Source of the DNA: a virus
DNA length: 36,860 bases
UHGV virus genome: UHGV-1448156
Direction: 5' to 3' (one strand)
Below are positions 2,754 through 25,519 of the stretch, in pieces. A program made the translations under genes and the position numbers. The stretch's first letter is position 1. Each line of letters opens with the position of its first letter. The notes below the pieces were generated by a model. It made no database searches, was not told where the DNA came from, and saw only the letters and a program-made list of their open reading frames with translations.

Positions 2754-3949
2754 GACTCCACCGTTATAACGATATTTTCCGGTGTACAGGACGCAGATTC
2801 GTTGTATCTGATATCAATGTTTGATGACGACAAAGCCCCCTGGGATTTCCCAATCGTCAGTTCCTGAATATCGTAATAGCGTGCATTCCCGCCACTCACC
2901 ACGCCAAGATTCGCCGGTGAGTAAATGCGACTTAAAAGGACCGAATCACCAATCGTCAGACTATTGATATAGTCGGAAATAGCCTGCTGGATCTGCTTCC
3001 CTATCTGTGAGGTATAACCCGTAAAAACTTTTAATTTAATCCGGGCATAAACAGGCACATCACTGGAACGCGAGAATTTGATTACATGGGGATTGCCGTA
3101 TTTATCCGGAACCGTAACGGATGTTGTACCGTGAGTGGCTGTCCCCTGGCCTTTATTCCCTCTGATAGCCTGAGCAATATCCGTCACATCACCGCCATCC
3201 ACAATTACAGCAACAGAGTGTGGCGGTAACCCGTTACCGTCCTCCGAACCAGTATCGTTTTCATAGAGTTTGTGGCGGGTTACACCGGTAACATTAGAAA
3301 CAGCACCATCCAGTGCTTCAAATGGGGTTATTGATGGCAACGCAACACTTTGCGACTGACGGATACGTAACTCCGCATCAGTTTCTGCCGGAGTGCCCAC
3401 AGTGGCTGCAGCAGGATTGGTTACCGAAACCCAGCCACGGGTTGGCGTATTAATTTCAGTGATAGTTCCAGCCAGCGCCGCCACTGCGCCACTGACGGAA
3501 CATATTGCGGTCACCATCACTGTACCATCCACTCCGACCACCACTGAAGCAGGCAAACGCCATATCACATTATTACTGTCTTTCACGCTGCCATTAATGA
3601 TGGTTGTTCCGGCAGTTCCTGTAAGAAGCAAATCAACCGTAGAGTTCGTCGCGCCTTTACGTGAAATACCATTTATTTTCACGTTACTGGTCAGTGCAGC
3701 CCCATAGCCGGTTGCCGGTGAAAAACAGTTGTAGACAGTTATCGCCATATTATTGGCATCATGAATCGCCAGCGCCATCAGAGCCACCATCTGGCCGTCT
3801 TTGCTGTCCGGTTCGAGGTAGGCATCACTGCCATAAATCTGCTGAAAATAGCTAATCAGGGTGCTGAGTATCGTCTGATAATCAGGCGCACTGATCCCCT
3901 CCGCGGTTACCTTTGCAGATAAACCGAGAGAATCAAGGTTCAGAGCCAT
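2750..3949 (-). CDS. Baseplate protein (P2 gpJ / Mu gp47-like)
   Basis: 399 aa; position in V-W-J-I order; coupled overlaps on both sides. Confidence 0.6.
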   Translation of the reverse strand: MALNLDSLGLSAKVTAEGISAPDYQTILSTLISYFQQIYGSDAYLEPDSKDGQMVALMALAIHDANNMAITVYNCFSPATGYGAALTSNVKINGISRKGATNSTVDLLLTGTAGTTIINGSVKDSNNVIWRLPASVVVGVDGTVMVTAICSVSGAVAALAGTITEINTPTRGWVSVTNPAAATVGTPAETDAELRIRQSQSVALPSITPFEALDGAVSNVTGVTRHKLYENDTGSEDGNGLPPHSVAVIVDGGDVTDIAQAIRGNKGQGTATHGTTSVTVPDKYGNPHVIKFSRSSDVPVYARIKLKVFTGYTSQIGKQIQQAISDYINSLTIGDSVLLSRIYSPANLGVVSGGNARYYDIQELTIGKSQGALSSSNIDIRYNESASCTPENIVITVES

Positions 3950-4302
3950 TACGCCTCCGATGTAACAGTCGTTATTCCATAAAGAGTGTCGATTTCAGCG
4001 GAAAACATGACACGTCGGGTCGTGGTATCCACCGTCGTATTGAAAGAGAGGATTGATTTAACGCCCCGCGTTTCGAGGATGCGCTTACGGATCGCCAGGT
4101 TGTAGGTTTCCGGCTTCTGCTTACCGAGTACGGACTGGATCCACGGAGTCCCCTCGGTGGTATCGAGAAACCATTGCCCATACCACAATTCGAATCGCGT
4201 TTTTACCGCCTGCGCCACGGCCTCCGGTGAGTTAATCAGCCAGGTATCATCGCCGCTGCCAAAGGTGTAATCACCGTCGGCGTCTTCGCGTCTGTATCGC
4301 AT
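3949..4302 (-). CDS. Baseplate wedge protein (gpW / Mu gp46-like)
   Basis: 117 aa between V-like and J-like genes. Confidence 0.5.
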   Translation of the reverse strand: MRYRREDADGDYTFGSGDDTWLINSPEAVAQAVKTRFELWYGQWFLDTTEGTPWIQSVLGKQKPETYNLAIRKRILETRGVKSILSFNTTVDTTTRRVMFSAEIDTLYGITTVTSEA

Positions 4303-5054
4303 CAGTTCACCCCGTCTGTGTTGCTTCCGCCTCGCTGAACCCCGCTGTGCGTGTGCGTATCATCAATTGACTTGCCGTTAGCTTTAACGGTACCGATAAA
4401 CTCGACAGCGCCGGTGATTTTGGATGCAACTCCAGAAGCAACAGACCCCACCATTCCACCCAGCCAGGACAGTAGCCCGTGAATGGTTACTTTCGCCGAG
4501 AAGTCGGCCAGCGGGGTAACTACATCCAGACCGCCAGGCGCTACGATTTTAATTTTCTGCGTATCCGGATTAAGGTCGATGTACGTACTTCCATCAACAC
4601 TTCGAAGCTGCGCCGACGTGGTGCTGACATTCTTAATTTTGTTGGGCTGAGATATTTGACCCACTGAGCAGGTGGCGTCGGACAGGTCATGTATGCGGTC
4701 GTCGACAGGTTCCTGCACTCCACCGTTTTGCCAGAAGAAATCAATACAGCGGTCTTGAAACTTAAGTTCGCACTCATCGCCGGGGCTCACCGGCAACGTT
4801 AAAGTAACTCCCCCGGCCGTTGGGAATACCACGGGAACATCCACCAGCAGCGGGTAAGGTTTTGTCACCCGGTTACCATCGTTATCGATCTCAACGTAAC
4901 GGATAGCAGGCTGCACAACCGCCGTAACCGCGTCAGGATCGAATGACTGAATAATGCCAGGCAAAGCGACGCGGATCTGGTTCTTTGTTGTTTCCCGTTC
5001 AGATTTGAATGTTTCAGCAAGGTCGCCGCTGCGGGTCTGGTCAGATACTGCCAT
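4302..5054 (-). CDS. Baseplate spike/assembly protein (gpV / Mu gp45-like)
   Basis: 250 aa; ATG 5054 with SD TGGAG; first gene after the cassette terminator. Confidence 0.55.
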   Translation of the reverse strand: MAVSDQTRSGDLAETFKSERETTKNQIRVALPGIIQSFDPDAVTAVVQPAIRYVEIDNDGNRVTKPYPLLVDVPVVFPTAGGVTLTLPVSPGDECELKFQDRCIDFFWQNGGVQEPVDDRIHDLSDATCSVGQISQPNKIKNVSTTSAQLRSVDGSTYIDLNPDTQKIKIVAPGGLDVVTPLADFSAKVTIHGLLSWLGGMVGSVASGVASKITGAVEFIGTVKANGKSIDDTHTHSGVQRGGSNTDGVN

Positions 5055-5073: not shown

Positions 5074-5099
5074 AAAAAACCCGCCGGGTGGCGGGTTTA
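5074..5099 (-). terminator. Rho-independent terminator closing the toxin cassette
   Basis: Minus-strand RNA AAACCCGCC-ACCC-GGCGGGUUUUUUG immediately after stop (5097-5099) of the 138-aa gene; A-run on the other side makes it potentially bidirectional. Confidence 0.6.
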
Positions 5100-5513
5100 T
5101 GAATCGTAGGTTTTCAATTTTTCGAGTTCATCAGGAGGAAGTTCTATGAAGGTTTCCTCTGCTAATTTTATCAGCCGGGGAAGCATCGAATCAGCTTGCT
5201 GATGAGCGTTTGGGCTGATGATTGCCAATATCTGATAGTGTTCATCGATATAAAGATGCTGAGCATATACCAAAAAATTATCACATGTCCGTTCACTCAG
5301 AGATGCTTCTGGAGGCCAGGGTTTATCGCCAGGTAGCTTTAAGTGAATTTTCCTGATGTTGGCAGCCATCGCATCATAGTTACGTTCAAAACCGCCTAAC
5401 GAACCAAAACACCAGAACTGGGAACCCTTTGAAATATAATCGGCAAGCATTTGAGCATACTTATGTGCTGCAGCTAAATGACGCAATTCTCCCGTGATAC
5501 TGACTTTTGCCAT
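5097..5513 (-). CDS. YafO-family-like toxin (putative ribosome-dependent mRNA interferase), 138 aa
   Basis: ATG 5513 lies 1 nt after the stop of the upstream gene (TGAcATG). Segments KIHL, PWPP, NFLVYAQ, ILAIISPNAH and LAEETF align with my recollection of E. coli YafO; not searched. Confidence 0.5.
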   Translation of the reverse strand: MAKVSITGELRHLAAAHKYAQMLADYISKGSQFWCFGSLGGFERNYDAMAANIRKIHLKLPGDKPWPPEASLSERTCDNFLVYAQHLYIDEHYQILAIISPNAHQQADSMLPRLIKLAEETFIELPPDELEKLKTYDS

Positions 5514-5514
5514 G

Positions 5515-6087
5515 TCACATCCATTTAGGGGCGTTGGCTCCCAGCATCTTATGCGATGTTGAGATCAGTTCAATAGCCTCTTCACGGGTAACATTATCTG
5601 ACAAGAGTTCAGCCTGGAAAGGCTGCGATTGCCTAACTTCAGCGGCCAACTGAGTTGCAGTGTTCTCGACGGCGGTCAACGCACGAACATATTTGCGTTT
5701 TAATGGGCGCAACATTTGCAGATGGCCTTGCCACATAGGGGACCTTTCCGCTTCAGAGAACATATCCACTAAATGTCCTTTAGCATTTCGGCATGCCTTG
5801 GCAAGACCTTCGAGATGGGATAAAAACCCTTCCGGAAGCTCATCAACAATGATTCTCCCATTTCGAAAAGCTTCGAGATGAGACATGCCTTCCTTCGCGG
5901 TATTTTCGATTTCTTGAGCGCGTGCAGCAATCGCGGTACAACGACGAAATGCCTCTTCAGCATCTAATCGTTGTGGCAGTTCACAAGCATTAGAGATCAG
6001 GGGTTTGAAAGCACCGTTAACAGCTTCCTGAACCTGATTCATTTGTTGTGTAATTGTTGCCAGCGCAAATGCGTAGCTAATCGCCAT
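5515..6087 (-). CDS. Unknown 190-aa protein in the antitoxin position
   Basis: ATG 6087 with SD GAGGG 9 nt upstream (track start 6093 is TTG). Predicted helical, no HTH recognised; unlike YafN/Phd. Confidence 0.5.
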   Translation of the reverse strand: MAISYAFALATITQQMNQVQEAVNGAFKPLISNACELPQRLDAEEAFRRCTAIAARAQEIENTAKEGMSHLEAFRNGRIIVDELPEGFLSHLEGLAKACRNAKGHLVDMFSEAERSPMWQGHLQMLRPLKRKYVRALTAVENTATQLAAEVRQSQPFQAELLSDNVTREEAIELISTSHKMLGANAPKWM

Positions 6088-6100
6088 ACCCAATCCCTCT

Positions 6101-6115
6101 GTCGTTTTAAACGAC
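6101..6115 (-). promoter_or_regulatory. Palindromic operator candidate GTCGTTTTAAACGAC
   Basis: 15-bp inverted repeat between the candidate promoter and the SD of the 190-aa gene. Confidence 0.3.
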
Positions 6116-6202
6116 TATACACCACTTATTCAAAGTTAGCTGAGCGCTAAAAGTTCGCAAAGTTTAGTGATCATGCAACCACCTAGCAAGCGATAAAAAA
6201 TC

Positions 6203-6230
6203 ATTATTTAGTGAATGTGAACAAACTCAA
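6203..6230 (-). promoter_or_regulatory. Candidate sigma70 promoter of the cassette
   Basis: Minus strand -35 TTGAGT, 16-bp spacer, -10 AATAAT in the 160-bp non-coding gap 6094-6255. Confidence 0.3.
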
Positions 6231-6255
6231 CACTATGCAGAAATGTAACTTTTGG

Positions 6256-6603
6256 TTAACCAGAAACCTTTTTGCATGGAAAGGAACCGATGATTTTCGG
6301 TGCATCCATGCTGTTCTGCAGAAGCTGGACGTTCAGGAAACGCGTTTCGGTACCCGGACGATGGATATACTCAAACCCATAGTTGTTGCCATCTTTAGCA
6401 GGCATCAGTCCCATTTTGATCTGCATGCCTGTACCGTCTTTGCCCAGCATCTTAACTTTTTGGGATGTTACGGTTTCGCCATTGATTTTAAACAATGAGT
6501 CAGGGATTGCGTCCATACGAAAGTTACCACATTGCATCGTTATGGTGTTTGCACTTGCGCCAACAGACGCTAACGCCAGCAATGAAAAAATCCATCGTTT
6601 CAT
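6256..6603 (-). CDS. Secreted protein of unknown function (115 aa, signal peptide)
   Basis: ATG 6603 with SD GAGGGGG, 3 nt after the hub gene stop. N-terminus MKRWIFSLLALASVGASA then mature part with two Cys. Track ORF start 6684 lies inside the hub gene. Confidence 0.5.
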   Translation of the reverse strand: MKRWIFSLLALASVGASANTITMQCGNFRMDAIPDSLFKINGETVTSQKVKMLGKDGTGMQIKMGLMPAKDGNNYGFEYIHRPGTETRFLNVQLLQNSMDAPKIIGSFPCKKVSG

Positions 6604-6605
6604 TT

Positions 6606-7670
6606 CTATAACCCCCTCTGCAATGCTGTACTCGATGGCATATCCTGCGCGCCACGCGCTTCGCACATCATATCCATGTACCACGCCTGGCCCCTTGTGT
6701 CGCCAGTGTACATAATCCCGCGCACAATATAAACGCCATCTGTTGCGATGCTGGCAGGCTGCGCCGTGGTGCCGCTGAGCGTGATATTTCCGTCCGTGTT
6801 CTGGTCGGTGATCTTCCCACCAGCCATCGCGATATCATTGTTCGACAGCGCGGTGCGGTACACGGAAGCCTGATCCAGCTGAATAAGCCCGTTAACCCGG
6901 ATGTTCGGATTAATGAGCGCACGGACGTTTACGCCGTTACCGATGGTCTGCTGCGGCATGCCAATAAGCCCGGTAGCACTGTTGAGCACAATCGCTTCGT
7001 GAACATATTCGTTATTCGCCACCATCTGGCGCTGACCGTCCACGAATTGCCATGTTGCGCCACATTGCCCGGCTACGTTATCCATTAGATGCCGCGTCAT
7101 GCCAAAGAGCACCCGCCCCCGGGGGAATACAGTAGCAGGCATTTCAGGCGTCAGGCCTTCGGTCGCGCCTTTGGCTTCGAAGTCTTTCATCAGCGCACGG
7201 TTCACATCAGCGACCGTGTAACCGGCAGCCAGCGTCTGTGAGGTTATACTGGTGGCAAATGCCAGATCCGTATCTGCTGCCTGAATCAGGACATAGGAAT
7301 CAATAGGGCTGTCTTTTCCTGTGACCGAGTAGCGAATTTCTCCGCTGAAAATCAGCCCGTAGTTGCGGCCATCACTCTGGCCCACATCTGCCGCGTCGAC
7401 TTCGCGCACGGTCCCGACGTCGCTTGCCGCCACCTCAGGCGCGATACCGTCGTAACCGGCAATCAGCCGCACTTTCGAAAACTCCTGCCCGGTAATTCGG
7501 TTCACAGTATCTGCCGAAAGGTTATAAATTTTGATAGTCCCTACCCGGGACGCGCTGCTGATGTTGAACCAGTCGATCGTAAAGGTGATTTTGAAATCAC
7601 TTAGCTCAATTCCCTGACCATTCCCGTCCACAAGCTGCAGCTCGAAATGTCTCATCCAGTTCTGTGACAT
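6606..7670 (-). CDS. Baseplate hub / tail protein (P2 gpD / Mu gp44-like)
   Basis: 354 aa; position between tape-measure-proximal tail genes and baseplate; SD GGAG before ATG 7670. Confidence 0.65.
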   Translation of the reverse strand: MSQNWMRHFELQLVDGNGQGIELSDFKITFTIDWFNISSASRVGTIKIYNLSADTVNRITGQEFSKVRLIAGYDGIAPEVAASDVGTVREVDAADVGQSDGRNYGLIFSGEIRYSVTGKDSPIDSYVLIQAADTDLAFATSITSQTLAAGYTVADVNRALMKDFEAKGATEGLTPEMPATVFPRGRVLFGMTRHLMDNVAGQCGATWQFVDGQRQMVANNEYVHEAIVLNSATGLIGMPQQTIGNGVNVRALINPNIRVNGLIQLDQASVYRTALSNNDIAMAGGKITDQNTDGNITLSGTTAQPASIATDGVYIVRGIMYTGDTRGQAWYMDMMCEARGAQDMPSSTALQRGL

Positions 7671-7975: not shown

Positions 7976-8562
7976 TAGCCGCCTCCCAGTAATGACGCCA
8001 CGTTACCAGTGATGCTTTTCAGCAGTGAAGTATCTGGAGGCTTTGTGGTTTTGTTGCCGCTGTTCTGTACCGCCGACGTGCTGGCCCCTTCCTTCATGTT
8101 GGTTTTATCCGCGACGGTAATCTGCTGTGTCCGGGAGATAATGACCTCCCTCAGGGTGAGGACGGCGGACAGGACGTTTTCGGTTGTCTTGTCCGTCGTC
8201 ACTTCCAGCGCCCGGATCAACATGTTGCTGTACAGCCGTTTACCGGTTACCACATCGAAGGGGATACGGATTTCCTGCAGATCCAGTAGCTCCTGATACG
8301 TCTGCTGAGGACTCAGGCCGAGCATGCTGGTAGCCGTCAGATTACTGGCAAAATCCAGCAATGCACCGCCACCGGCGAAACCAACCTCCATCACCACTTC
8401 TGACGGTTTTTTATAGGCATGATCAGCGACAGCGGCCCCGACCTCTACCGGATGCTCTGTTATTTCAAGCATATCTGTATGCTTCTCTGAAATAACAACA
8501 CTGGGAACAATCATTCCTATTTTTCTGCTCTGCTGATGAAAAAGTGTAGAGAGAATATCCAC
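7975..8562 (-). CDS. Tail protein (195 aa, GTG start)
   Basis: Follows the tape measure; start codon GTG overlapping the tape measure stop. Confidence 0.45.
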   Translation of the reverse strand: MDILSTLFHQQSRKIGMIVPSVVISEKHTDMLEITEHPVEVGAAVADHAYKKPSEVVMEVGFAGGGALLDFASNLTATSMLGLSPQQTYQELLDLQEIRIPFDVVTGKRLYSNMLIRALEVTTDKTTENVLSAVLTLREVIISRTQQITVADKTNMKEGASTSAVQNSGNKTTKPPDTSLLKSITGNVASLLGGG

Positions 8563-10550
8563 TAACCCACCCTCACCTGATTACTTCGCATGACCTGAGC
8601 ATTTGCAGACTGTTGCCGACGTGCAACCTCATTACCGACAGCGTGCGGATCTCCGCCACCGTAAATGTGGTAGGTATTTTGCTGGTTAACCTCTGTCACT
8701 TTGCCACTAATTCCCGCCACGGCAGCCTTATTAATCAGCTCTCGAGAATAGATATTTCTTCCATTTTCATGCTGGATAATGCTGCTCATCAATGCTGACA
8801 TGGTTTGCGGATCGCTCATATTCAGGGCAGCCCGGGGATCCACTCCCAGTCGTTGCGATACAGCCCTGATATACGCAGTTGTGTTGTTATTATCAGACGC
8901 AGGTGCCCAGGTAGAGATAATTTTCTCCACACTGTTTATTCCCCGTCCGGCGTACAGCATTAACTGACGAGCAAGAGCCCGTAATCCATCAAAAGCAGTT
9001 TCAAATCTGGCAAATCGCCCGCCCGGGCGTTCAAGAGAAGCCCCTGCCTGACCAGCAAAATTAAGGTTTCCCGGATTGTTATTCCGTTCTCCTCGTTTCG
9101 TAGCCTGTGCATATTGTTCCGGCTCATCATCACCAAACCAGCCGCGTACCGTCCGGCCCACACTGCGGGGATCGAATCCCCAGTGCTCTTTAATCCAGTC
9201 GGCAGCACTGTTAGCGCTGTCTGTAACCATCGGCATCGCTGACGGATTTTCGCTGCCCTGATTAAGTATCTGTTTGCCGATGCTGACGGCATCAGCCCAG
9301 CGGCCATCTTTGATAGCGTTGAGCAGGTCGGCGATCATGTTCAGCATTTTGCTGAATTCGCCCATCTGGTCGATGAAGTTGCTGAAATCCCACTTCAGGG
9401 ACCATGATTTGGGGTCAATATTGAGCAGTTTCGCCAGCGCTTTCGCCAGTTCATTAACAGACCCTTTCAGGTCACGAACCATCTTCAGCGCGGCATCGAC
9501 CTCCGGCTTCCACTTGCCCCAGTCAATCAGGCTGTCGCCGCCTTCCTTCCAGGTCTGATAGTCCTCCCACAGAAGGGCAATCCCCGCCGCCAGCGCGGTA
9601 ATGAGGCCAATCGGCGACATCCAGAACGTACTGTTCAGAATGCGCAGCGCAATCGTCAGCGCGCCAAACAGCGAGATGAGCTCCCGAGTTTGCTTATCCA
9701 GCGATTGCCACCAGGTGATGAGGCCTGATGTTCCTTCAATCAGTCTGAAGAACAGCCGCCCGATAATATCCCCGAGCGCCAGAATGCCTTTTATGGCTTT
9801 CGTCAGGGTCTGCTCGATACGCGGGAAGTTGTCCAGGATATGGCGGCGCAGAGTGTCCAGCGAACCCGCAAGCCCACCCGCAAGATTAGAGCCGATTTTG
9901 TCACGGGCCATGCCTGCCATCGCGCCGAACTCGCGCAGGGAGGTCATGAATTTGTTGGAGCTTCTGGCCGCCTCGTCAGCATTGAAGCCGATAGCTTTCG
10001 CCATTGCGCTGTACTGCCCGGAGAAGCCACCCACACCCCGGCGCATCGCCATAAGGGTATTTTCGTCAATGCCCAGCATCTGCGCATACTGGTTAGCCCG
10101 GTAATACGGCATGCCGCTGAGCTTCTGGCCTACACCCGTAAAAATAGCGGCCATGTCACGCATGTTACCGCTGGCATCACGGGTCTGTACGCCCAGGCGA
10201 TTCAGAAAGCCTTCTGCACCGGGATTGTTACGAATAAACCGGGAGAGGCTTTCCAGAGAAGATCGCGCAGCGTCAACGCTGCCGCCCACCTGCGAAACCG
10301 CATAGCCAATAGACTGAATCCCCTGAACCGTCGCGCCGGTGCGCTGTGACGCCCAGTAGAGATTATCCAGACCGGAGGCGATCTTAGCCGTGAAGGCCAC
10401 CACGGACAGCGCAGCTCCTTCAACAGCCAGCCCCATTTTGATGACATTTGCAGTTGTACCGGCGAGGACAGAACCGAACTTTTTCGCTCCTGCATCATCC
10501 ACACTGAAGCCAAGCGAGACGAGGAAATCTTTAATAGTTTCAGCGTTCAT
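8562..10550 (-). CDS. Tail tape measure protein
   Basis: About 662 aa, helical and Ala/Gly-rich with hydrophobic segments; ATG 10550 with SD GGAGAGAGG (track start 10571 is TTG). Confidence 0.8.
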   Translation of the reverse strand: MNAETIKDFLVSLGFSVDDAGAKKFGSVLAGTTANVIKMGLAVEGAALSVVAFTAKIASGLDNLYWASQRTGATVQGIQSIGYAVSQVGGSVDAARSSLESLSRFIRNNPGAEGFLNRLGVQTRDASGNMRDMAAIFTGVGQKLSGMPYYRANQYAQMLGIDENTLMAMRRGVGGFSGQYSAMAKAIGFNADEAARSSNKFMTSLREFGAMAGMARDKIGSNLAGGLAGSLDTLRRHILDNFPRIEQTLTKAIKGILALGDIIGRLFFRLIEGTSGLITWWQSLDKQTRELISLFGALTIALRILNSTFWMSPIGLITALAAGIALLWEDYQTWKEGGDSLIDWGKWKPEVDAALKMVRDLKGSVNELAKALAKLLNIDPKSWSLKWDFSNFIDQMGEFSKMLNMIADLLNAIKDGRWADAVSIGKQILNQGSENPSAMPMVTDSANSAADWIKEHWGFDPRSVGRTVRGWFGDDEPEQYAQATKRGERNNNPGNLNFAGQAGASLERPGGRFARFETAFDGLRALARQLMLYAGRGINSVEKIISTWAPASDNNNTTAYIRAVSQRLGVDPRAALNMSDPQTMSALMSSIIQHENGRNIYSRELINKAAVAGISGKVTEVNQQNTYHIYGGGDPHAVGNEVARRQQSANAQVMRSNQVRVG

Positions 10551-22572: not shown

Positions 22573-23133
22573 ATGATCCATACCGTACACTTCATGACAG
22601 ATGTGACAGTTGCTTCTGTATCCAGCCTTATGGATGTTTGCCTCAAAGCGATATCAAGCCCTAACCAACCAGCCTCTGAGATCAGGATTTACATCTCTAG
22701 TAAAGGTGGAGATACCGTTGCAGGTTTTACCGCATACAACTTTCTTAAGTCTCTTCCTGTAAAGGTGAAGACACATAACCTTAGTAACGTGGAATCTATA
22801 GCAAATGTTATTTTCATGGCTGGATCTGAGCGGTTTGCTAATCCTCTCTCGCGATTTTTATTACATCCTTTACATTGGGGATTTGCCGCCCCACAAGCAG
22901 ATCACCTCAGGCTTAGGGAATGGGCGGCATGTCTGGATGACGACTTGCAAAGATTTGTGCAGGTGATGAATATCGAGGCTCTCGCTGTAGCCCCAGATGA
23001 GCAAATTGACTGGGCTAATTTGATCACTTCTGCAACCATCATTGATCCGGGAAGGGCCACCGAGTTGGGTATGATCCAGAATGTCGAGGCTGCAACCATA
23101 CCCACAGATTCGATCAGGTGGTGGGTTCTGTAA
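22573..23133 (+). CDS. ClpP-fold (S14/crotonase-like) peptidase homologue, 186 aa
   Basis: IRIYISSKGGDTVAGFTAY...VESIANVIFMAGSERFANPLSRFLLHPL aligns with ClpP YINSPGGVITAGMSIY...[30 protein letters not shown] from memory; candidate Ser and His retained. Opposite strand to all flanking late genes. Confidence 0.6.
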   Translation: MIHTVHFMTDVTVASVSSLMDVCLKAISSPNQPASEIRIYISSKGGDTVAGFTAYNFLKSLPVKVKTHNLSNVESIANVIFMAGSERFANPLSRFLLHPLHWGFAAPQADHLRLREWAACLDDDLQRFVQVMNIEALAVAPDEQIDWANLITSATIIDPGRATELGMIQNVEAATIPTDSIRWWVL

Positions 23134-24895: not shown

Positions 24896-25519
24896 TTAAC
24901 GTGTGACCTCATTCAAAATGTTGTCTGCGATTGACTCTTCCTTGTGGCATTGCACGACCAGAGCGTCATACAGCGGCTTAACAGTGCGTGACCAGGTGGG
25001 TTGGGTAAGGTTTGGGATTAGCATCGTTACAGCGCGATATGCGGCGCTTGCTGGCATTCTTGAATAGCCGACACCTTTGCATCTTCCGCACTCTTTCTCA
25101 ACAACTCTCCCCCACTGCTCTGTTTTTGCTATATCAACCGCACGACCTGTACCGTGGCAATCTCTGCATCTTGCCCCCGGCGTCGCGGCACTACGGCAAT
25201 AATCCGCATAAGCGAATGTTGCGAGCACTTGCAGTACCTTTGCCTTAGTATTTCCTTCGAGCTTTGCCACACCACGGTATTTCCCCGATACCTTGTGTGC
25301 AAATTGCATCAGATAGTTGATAGCCTTTTGTTTGTCGTTCTGGCTGAGTTCGTGCTTACCGCAGAATGCAGCCATTCCGAATCCTGCTTGTGATTGCGCC
25401 ATCCCCATAGCAGCCATCACATCGGTACCGGAAAGAGAGTCAGAAGCCGTAGCCCGTGGTGAGTCACTCATCATCGGGCTTTTTGGCGAATGAAATTTAG
25501 CTACGCTTTCGAGTCTCAT
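24896..25519 (-). CDS. Q: Late antiterminator Q (lambda type)
   Basis: 207 aa MRLESVAKFHSPKSPMMSDSPRATASDSL..., matches lambda Q as recalled; ATGA-coupled to NinH. Confidence 0.9.
   Translation of the reverse strand: MRLESVAKFHSPKSPMMSDSPRATASDSLSGTDVMAAMGMAQSQAGFGMAAFCGKHELSQNDKQKAINYLMQFAHKVSGKYRGVAKLEGNTKAKVLQVLATFAYADYCRSAATPGARCRDCHGTGRAVDIAKTEQWGRVVEKECGRCKGVGYSRMPASAAYRAVTMLIPNLTQPTWSRTVKPLYDALVVQCHKEESIADNILNEVTR

Follow-up and report, generated by a model that had tools for sequence, protein, structure and literature searches.

A predicted Sec-exported protein encoded directly behind the baseplate hub gene of SEN34-type temperate myophages

Genes and signals at the hub–spike junction

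The window, by which the whole analysed stretch of 36,860 nucleotides is meant, represents a nearly complete SEN34-type (Brunovirus-like), lambdoid-regulated temperate myophage, and over the region considered here it is 98% identical to prophages residing in E. coli chromosomes. Its tail genes are read from the minus strand in the order tape measure, Dit-like protein, Pam3_gp18-type plug, baseplate hub and a small gene, here called the exported-protein gene, after which come a 162-nt AT-rich spacer, a 192-aa protein, a YafO toxin and a terminator, followed by the gpV-type spike, the sheath-initiator position and baseplate J (Table 1).

Table 1. Features at and around the hub–spike junction of the window
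Feature	Positions	Strand	Remarks
Baseplate hub gene, 354 aa	6606..7670	minus	phrog_196 at 8e-89; weak PF22759 E217_GP41 match
Shine-Dalgarno element AGAGGGGG	6612..6619	minus	within the final hub codons; its end lies 8 nt ahead of the exported-protein ATG
Exported-protein gene	6256..6603	minus	115 aa; stop codon 6256-6258; family phrog_3443; purifying selection
Signal peptide codons, aa 1-18 MKRWIFSLLALASVGASA	6550..6603	minus	predicted SPase I cut after ASA; pattern kept across homologs
Mature domain, 97 aa	6259..6549	minus	small up-and-down beta-barrel (predicted); Cys7 in first strand, Cys92 in last; putative disulfide
AT-rich spacer, GC 0.36	6094..6255	minus	promoter-like site 6230..6203; inverted repeat GTCGTTTAAAACGAC
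192-aa protein, phrog_35514, no known family	5515..6093	minus	upstream partner of YafO; separate cargo
YafO-family toxin, 138 aa	5097..5513	minus	PF13957 at 4e-17; PGAP name; separate cargo
Terminator-like hairpin, strong	5077..5098	minus	9 bp, 6 GC, then T run; end of the toxin cassette, ahead of the spike
Baseplate spike, gpV-like N domain and Apex motif	4302..5054	minus	PF18352 at 4e-36, PF18946; downstream edge of the variable junction

A reading of this locus from the sequence alone had placed a 115-aa open reading frame, preceded by a Shine-Dalgarno element, 3 nt behind the hub stop. Its coordinates hold, with the strand corrected to minus, and so does the element AGAGGGGG, whereas the gap measures 2 nt (hub stop TAG at 6608-6606, ATG at 6603-6601). 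That the frame is a real gene is borne out by a full-length match to phrog_3443, a family of 'unknown function' (E 2.8e-51, residues 1-114 of the 115-position profile), by 388 homologs, and by dN/dS values of 0.01-0.13 against the window copy, for which dS is often saturated. A longer, GTG-started frame (6256-6684) overlaps the hub gene out of frame and is unsupported by homologs. In Salmonella phage SEN34 (SEN34_20, L001 3938-4279), and likewise in L004 and L005, the deposited start lies at an internal Met, yielding proteins of 77-92 aa that lose the signal peptide; a TTG, GTG or ATG located 0-3 nt past the hub stop restores it.

The hub gene is the upstream operon partner of the exported-protein gene, and since its stop lies 2 nt from the following ATG the two are translationally coupled. 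A stop-to-start gap of -8 to +3 nt, accompanied by a purine-rich tract, is found in all of the 47 complete loci. A consensus-pattern scan of the minus strand detected neither a promoter-like site upstream of the gene nor a terminator 3' of it. Lack of a promoter-like site, together with hub coupling, thus suggests that the protein is probably expressed late and with the tail genes, not from the prophage. The gene also differs in composition from its neighbours, with a GC content of 0.451 and GC3 of 0.50, compared to 0.551 and 0.639 in the hub gene and to a GC3 of 0.56-0.64 in the flanking tail genes.

The toxin-like cassette recognized downstream in the sequence-only reading is indeed of YafO type. 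Its GC content is 0.42-0.48, the inverted repeat GTCGTTTAAAACGAC lies near its ribosome-binding site, and the promoter-like site in the spacer and the hairpin and T run after yafO identify it as an autonomous moron. A Q antiterminator is present (24896-25519) and would let late transcription read through the YafO terminator. Within this cassette (5097-6255, minus strand) YafO is preceded by the 192-aa phrog_35514 protein instead of a YafN-type antitoxin, and this protein may represent a new antitoxin type; the cassette co-occurs with differing alleles of both the exported protein and the spike.

Elsewhere in the window, far from the exported-protein gene, lies a complete lysis cassette of holin, lambda-R-like endolysin, Rz-like and Rz1/LysC-like genes. 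The C-terminus of the tape measure (8562-9176, minus strand; last ~205 aa) is endolysin-like, matching PDB entries 7q47 ('Endolysin', 1e-13) and 9vvp (Gp29, 1.5e-20), and Pfam SLT was not detected in it. Related prophages carry another C-terminal type, ending in ...TRNYIPKVLSNMP, and for one tape measure of this type (L089) a precomputed SLT match (PF01464) is on record, its place within the protein not located. A 186-aa Clp-protease-like frame (22573-23133, plus strand; PF00574, 4.9e-12) has the small terminase on one side and the lysis cassette on the other, and is not encoded on the strand of the late genes but on its complement.

Export signal, cysteine pair and predicted fold

The N-terminal residues MKRWIFSLLALASVGASA, followed by NT, comprise two basic residues, a hydrophobic core and ASA at positions -3/-1. 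A rule-based check of Sec/SPase-I features found all of them in the query, namely a basic n-region, an h-region, small residues at -3/-1 and no lipobox (the pattern L-[AS]-[GA]-C does not occur, and the first Cys falls 7 residues past the AXA site). The same test was passed by 109 of 129 homologs, and 18 of the 20 that failed begin within the hydrophobic core of longer family members and therefore resemble truncated start calls. Across homologs the sequence of the signal peptide drifts, and its tripartite pattern with AXA is retained. The earlier recognition of a typical Sec signal peptide is upheld by these results, and the gene product is predicted, with good support, to be a Sec-type, SPase-I-processed periplasmic protein.

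The predicted mature protein (97 aa, 10.7 kDa, pI 9.3) contains the two cysteines already pointed out in the sequence-only reading, at mature positions 7 and 92, and alignments show both to be invariant down to relatives that are 25-30% identical. An AlphaFold2 model of the mature domain, calculated from a 54-sequence alignment (pLDDT 89, pTM 0.78), adopts a small beta-barrel of seven strands in an up-and-down arrangement. In the model Cys7 and Cys92 belong to the first and the last strand, respectively, which fits a putative barrel-closing disulfide that may form in the periplasm.

A periplasmic enzyme inhibitor had been among the functions first suggested for this protein, and the predicted barrel invites comparison with the MliC/PliC lysozyme inhibitors and Brucella PhiA (PF09864), a family characterised by a barrel of eight strands. 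In fold comparison the highest scores were obtained for the erythrocruorin linker (8.9), Cap15 (7.6) and avidins (about 7.3), unrelated barrels that rank above PhiA (6.8), PliC (6.6 and 5.7) and MliC (5.6), and in this modelled structure the likeness to other barrels is generic only. A Foldseek search of the model against PDB and BFVD returned nothing significant. The query had no PF09864 match below E 0.01, nor had eight distant relatives any below E 0.1, and hhalign of the family against an MliC alignment superimposed the signal peptides alone (probability 29%). Membership in MliC/PliC was therefore rejected by both HMM and profile-profile comparison, the MliC inhibitory loop motifs also being absent, and an inhibitor assignment of this kind finds no backing in the sequence.

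Distribution, allele exchange and unusual relatives

The 388 homologs, retrieved from among 5.8 billion proteins, all belong to Enterobacterales and are all labelled 'hypothetical' or similar. A profile search of 1.84 billion cluster representatives matched only 44 clusters, and four long matches (P0121, P0150, P0159, P0162) were recognized by sequence inspection as repeat-protein artefacts, so that the family is narrow. Its alignments share the signal peptide, the two conserved cysteines, and the motifs ING..SQK and LNV. Some E. coli homologs in the same position carry the PGAP name 'STY1065/STY2022 family phage-derived protein', known only from these records, as the NCBIfam HMM library gave no match. 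Scans of the exported protein with Pfam, NCBIfam and PADLOC, including the PADLOC-DB defence-system models, were equally negative, a PDB sequence-profile search produced noise only (best E 0.11), and searches of the literature on the STY1065/STY2022 family, SEN34, Brunovirus and exclusion yielded no functional data. The family is thus already catalogued and uncharacterised, with no assigned function, structure or literature. Among 5426 complete E. coli genomes the hub is matched in 408 (about 7.5%) and the exported-protein gene, at the DNA level, in 282 (about 5%), and the tail module is also common in prophages of Klebsiella, Salmonella, Citrobacter, Serratia and Pantoea.

The gene invariably stands directly behind the hub in 80 IMG/VR loci, retrieved using the exported protein itself, as well as in the records of phages and of E. 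coli. A sample selected by the hub (43 loci from Enterobacterales prophages, one genome per species, hub identity 44-97%) contains it in 36 cases, in seven of which it stands alone between hub and spike (gap 374-414 nt). The seven loci without the gene include three in which hub and spike are joined directly, three with other content and one record ending just past the hub. Direct joins occur in loci L132, L138 and L142, and in Providencia PSTCR3, Acinetobacter AbTJ and Edwardsiella ZHS, and Hafnia yong1 has an unrelated gene lacking a signal peptide at the post-hub position. The virion structure of E217 shows the tip anchored by the hub trimer without an intermediary; gp42 of this phage, encoded between hub and tip, was considered as a counterpart and found to be unrelated and devoid of a signal peptide. 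Phages that join hub to spike, together with the E217 anchoring, indicate that the exported protein is unnecessary for building the baseplate. The original view of the protein as an exported, non-structural accessory is thereby strengthened, given the absence of the gene from related phages that share the baseplate, and the predicted export signal and Cys pair agree with it.

A variable slot lies downstream of the exported-protein gene, with a gap to the spike ranging from about 320 to 2070 nt, and the cassettes occupying it differ among otherwise near-identical prophages. The earlier view of exported, non-structural cargo at a cargo junction is upheld in so far as the hub–spike junction is a variable cargo site; the exported-protein gene is the constant accessory element of this junction, separate from the YafO moron. 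The gene does not behave as a free-standing moron of the bor/cor/lom kind, since all complete loci show it translationally coupled to the hub. A moron has a promoter and a terminator of its own. The lambdoid examples bor, lom and HK97 gp15 resemble the exported-protein gene in their accessory, non-structural nature, lower GC content, location in a late or tail operon and presence or absence among relatives, but differ in possessing the two transcription signals, which the hub-coupled gene lacks and the YafO cassette has. It is well supported that the gene has become a permanent passenger of the baseplate operon in those temperate myophages of Enterobacterales that are SEN34-type (Brunovirus-like).

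Three loci with SEN34-like tail modules of enterobacterial type bear non-enterobacterial host labels, namely L105 (Chryseobacterium sp. 18061) and L141 (Bacillus sp. AFS073361, a 255-nt contig), with hub identities of 92-98%, and L093 (Elizabethkingia phage EKP1), with a hub identity of 46.5%; contamination or a mis-assigned host is likely in all three. Other phages sharing the baseplate module repeatedly carry, near the hub, unrelated frames that encode a signal peptide or signal anchor, as in EKP1 (L093 ~3530-4122, including an unannotated 79-aa Thr/Gly-rich frame), Burkholderia Magia gp21 (L095 3457-3828, opposite strand), Providencia PSTCR3 (L094 1963-2436) and SEN34_21 (L001 4301-4717).

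Among prophages that share 96-100% identity with the window in tape-measure C-domain, Dit, plug and hub, the mature exported protein ranges from 66 to 99% identity. It still reaches 73-85% in cases in which the identity of the tape-measure C-domain is no more than about 41%. Between alleles dS is saturated, compared to a dS of 0.007-0.05 in the flanking tape-measure C-domain. Positive selection as the source of this diversity was rejected; saturated dS combined with dN/dS <= 0.13 indicates old alleles exchanged by recombination under purifying selection. No covariation was found with hub or spike alleles, and alleles of the exported protein combine freely with those of the spike. The same allele also pairs with two tape-measure C-terminal lysin types, and loci without the gene carry either type. 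A cognate inhibitor of the tape-measure lysin is accordingly unsupported, since neither presence nor allele tracks lysin type.

Several relatives depart from the common architecture. A 292-aa lipoprotein fusion at the post-hub position combines a lipobox and a novel 190-aa N-domain with the exported-protein domain at its C-terminus. Fusions of this kind, about 290 aa long, comprise the one encoded at L089 6001-6879 and P0140, P0163 and P0284-P0293, and their N-domain has no relatives outside such fusions and no PHROG function. In a Serratia aquatilis prophage (NZ_CP173186.1, L126 4592-7245) four intact paralogs and one truncated copy, each with its own signal peptide, are arrayed in tandem directly after the hub and are followed by an IS transposase. 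Diverged, non-prophage chromosomal orthologs (P0154, P0158) occupy the interval between yciY and yciI in the order oppF-yciU-cls-yciY-[gene]-yciI-tonB-yciA-yciB-yciC (L145 4001-4357 and L148 4001-4327, two metagenome-assembled enterobacterial-type genomes). In TARA marine metagenomes (L146 371-709; L147 234-572) a distant homolog is preceded by the plug gene and followed by a hub-sized gene of 315 aa, and therefore lies upstream of the latter, not downstream. Another distant homolog, P0155 (L150 671-3607), is found among genes matching DUF3761, LprI (weakly), YidB and the chagasin-type Inhibitor_I42.

A proposed function at the envelope and its alternatives

The protein is very probably a Sec-exported, non-structural small-barrel passenger of the baseplate operon, a description to which a probability of roughly 0.85 is assigned. 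Its export is further suggested by the lipobox-bearing variants with an extra N-terminal domain at the same position, and a non-structural nature by its GC3, which is below that of the flanking tail genes. Its translation is coupled to that of the hub, and it is therefore probably made late, from the Q-antiterminated transcript and in amounts similar to those of the low-copy hub. In the mechanism considered the best explanation of its function, the protein would bind a conserved component of the envelope or of phage entry within the periplasm of the cell that makes it. Other virions would thereby be kept from penetrating with their tail tips or from delivering DNA, or progeny would be kept from re-adsorbing to the lysing cell, and the outcome would be superinfection exclusion or anti-re-adsorption exerted from the periplasmic side. 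As the partner is not allele-matched to the neighbouring hub, spike or tape-measure lysin, the likelier target would be either an envelope factor of the host or some conserved feature of incoming tail tips. Once this periplasmic block is included, the probability of the whole statement is about one in three.

An entry or re-adsorption block at the envelope is in keeping with old alleles swapped independently of their flanks, a population pattern like that of immunity or exclusion genes. Also consistent with it are the Serratia tandem array, the orphan orthologs at the fixed yciY-yciI locus, and the recurrence of unrelated exported frames around the hub in other phages. Against this stand the lack of homology to any functional family in Pfam, NCBIfam, PADLOC, PDB sequence and Foldseek searches, and the lack of covariation with any tail-tip protein. 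Exclusion genes of the classic type have promoters of their own that drive expression in the prophage, and a gene that looks late-only fits poorly with exclusion in lysogens. Being coupled in translation to a low-copy partner, the protein should itself be scarce, which is awkward if an abundant receptor has to be masked. From the chromosomal orthologs it is also evident that a purely bacterial role is open to this fold. Exclusion or receptor masking is a plausible guess.

Known envelope-level systems offer partial parallels. Llp of T5 and Cor of T1/phi80 are outer-membrane lipoproteins that block FhuA from the periplasmic side, acting in the envelope against re-infection and progeny loss. Like the exported protein they are small, exported and phage-encoded among tail genes, but they possess a lipobox, whereas the exported protein has an SPase-I signal, no sequence match to them, and a gene coupled to the hub and not to a receptor-binding protein. 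With no lipobox and no Pfam or PHROG match to those families, the exported protein is not a lipoprotein of the Cor/Llp/Bor type, of which Cor and Bor had been cited as examples in the sequence-only reading. T4 Spackle, a helical and early-expressed periplasmic inhibitor of the gp5 tail lysozyme, shares with the exported protein a phage origin, a signal peptide and a periplasmic location. Its tie to the tail tip makes an analogy possible because the tape measure of the window carries a lysin domain, but the exported protein is modelled as a beta-barrel, is probably made late and shows no link to lysin type.

Inhibition of, or immunity to, a peptidoglycan hydrolase, in the manner of T4 Spackle, MliC/PliC or Brucella PhiA, is an unlikely alternative to the entry block, with the tape-measure tail-tip lysin, the endolysin, or a host or foreign lysozyme as conceivable targets. 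A small periplasmic barrel with a cysteine pair linking first and last strands is reminiscent of MliC, the endolysin-like end of the tape measure provides a candidate target, tandem arrays and orphan copies resemble immunity genes, and distant homolog P0155 adjoins LprI-like and chagasin-like inhibitor genes. This reading is weakened by the profile tests, in which neither the query nor its distant relatives matched PF09864 and only signal peptides aligned, by the missing MliC loop motifs, and by the absence of a link to lysin type, one allele accompanying two lysin types and gene-less loci carrying either.

Similarly improbable is a new periplasmic 'anti-tail' immunity class, in which a small disulfide-clamped barrel would neutralise the hub/spike tip or an entry cofactor. 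Its targets would be contractile-tail phages or tailocins that have passed the outer membrane, and it would have been inherited beside the hub and spread as orphan copies and tandem arrays, like T6SS immunity genes.

Stx subunits are freed by phage lysis, and Bor alters the envelope for host fitness. That the exported protein is cargo of either kind, a periplasmic binding or lectin-like protein released at lysis or an envelope-altering fitness factor, is distinctly unlikely. A late operon combined with export means that lysis would release the protein, avidin- and lipocalin-like barrels are typical of ligand binders, the fixed locus of the chromosomal orthologs implies that the role is cell-autonomous, and members of the family are widely distributed among clinical E. 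coli, Klebsiella and Salmonella. However, no similarity to any toxin, lectin or Bor/Iss family was found, and adjacency to the hub persists in very divergent phages, marine ones included, which points to a phage-centred role. Late co-expression and periplasmic location, both predicted, would also suit a modulator of the envelope or of lysis, affecting lysis timing, outer-membrane integrity or the state of peptidoglycan before release; this is highly unlikely in view of the complete lysis cassette already present far away and the lack of resemblance to known antiholins or spanins. Finally, a virion or baseplate-assembly component whose hydrophobic N-terminus is a membrane-insertion or assembly element and not a Sec signal, as might be proposed from the fixed place in the baseplate block, the translational coupling to the hub and the position beside the hub in marine phages too, is scarcely credible given the conserved AXA motif, a Cys pair that needs an oxidising compartment, the lipoprotein-anchored variants, the related phages with the same baseplate that lack the gene, the non-prophage chromosomal orthologs and the direct binding of the tip by the E217 hub.

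Two elements of the hub–spike junction that had earlier been merged, the constant exported-protein gene and a variable cargo slot (occupied here by the YafO cassette), are now separated. A strongly constrained, predicted periplasmic protein joined to the hub gene is widespread in enterobacterial prophages. Should the entry block or re-adsorption block proposed above prove true, the envelope-level exclusion factors, few in number, would gain a type that is soluble and not a lipoprotein, and prophage-mediated resistance and the host range of phages used in therapy would be affected.
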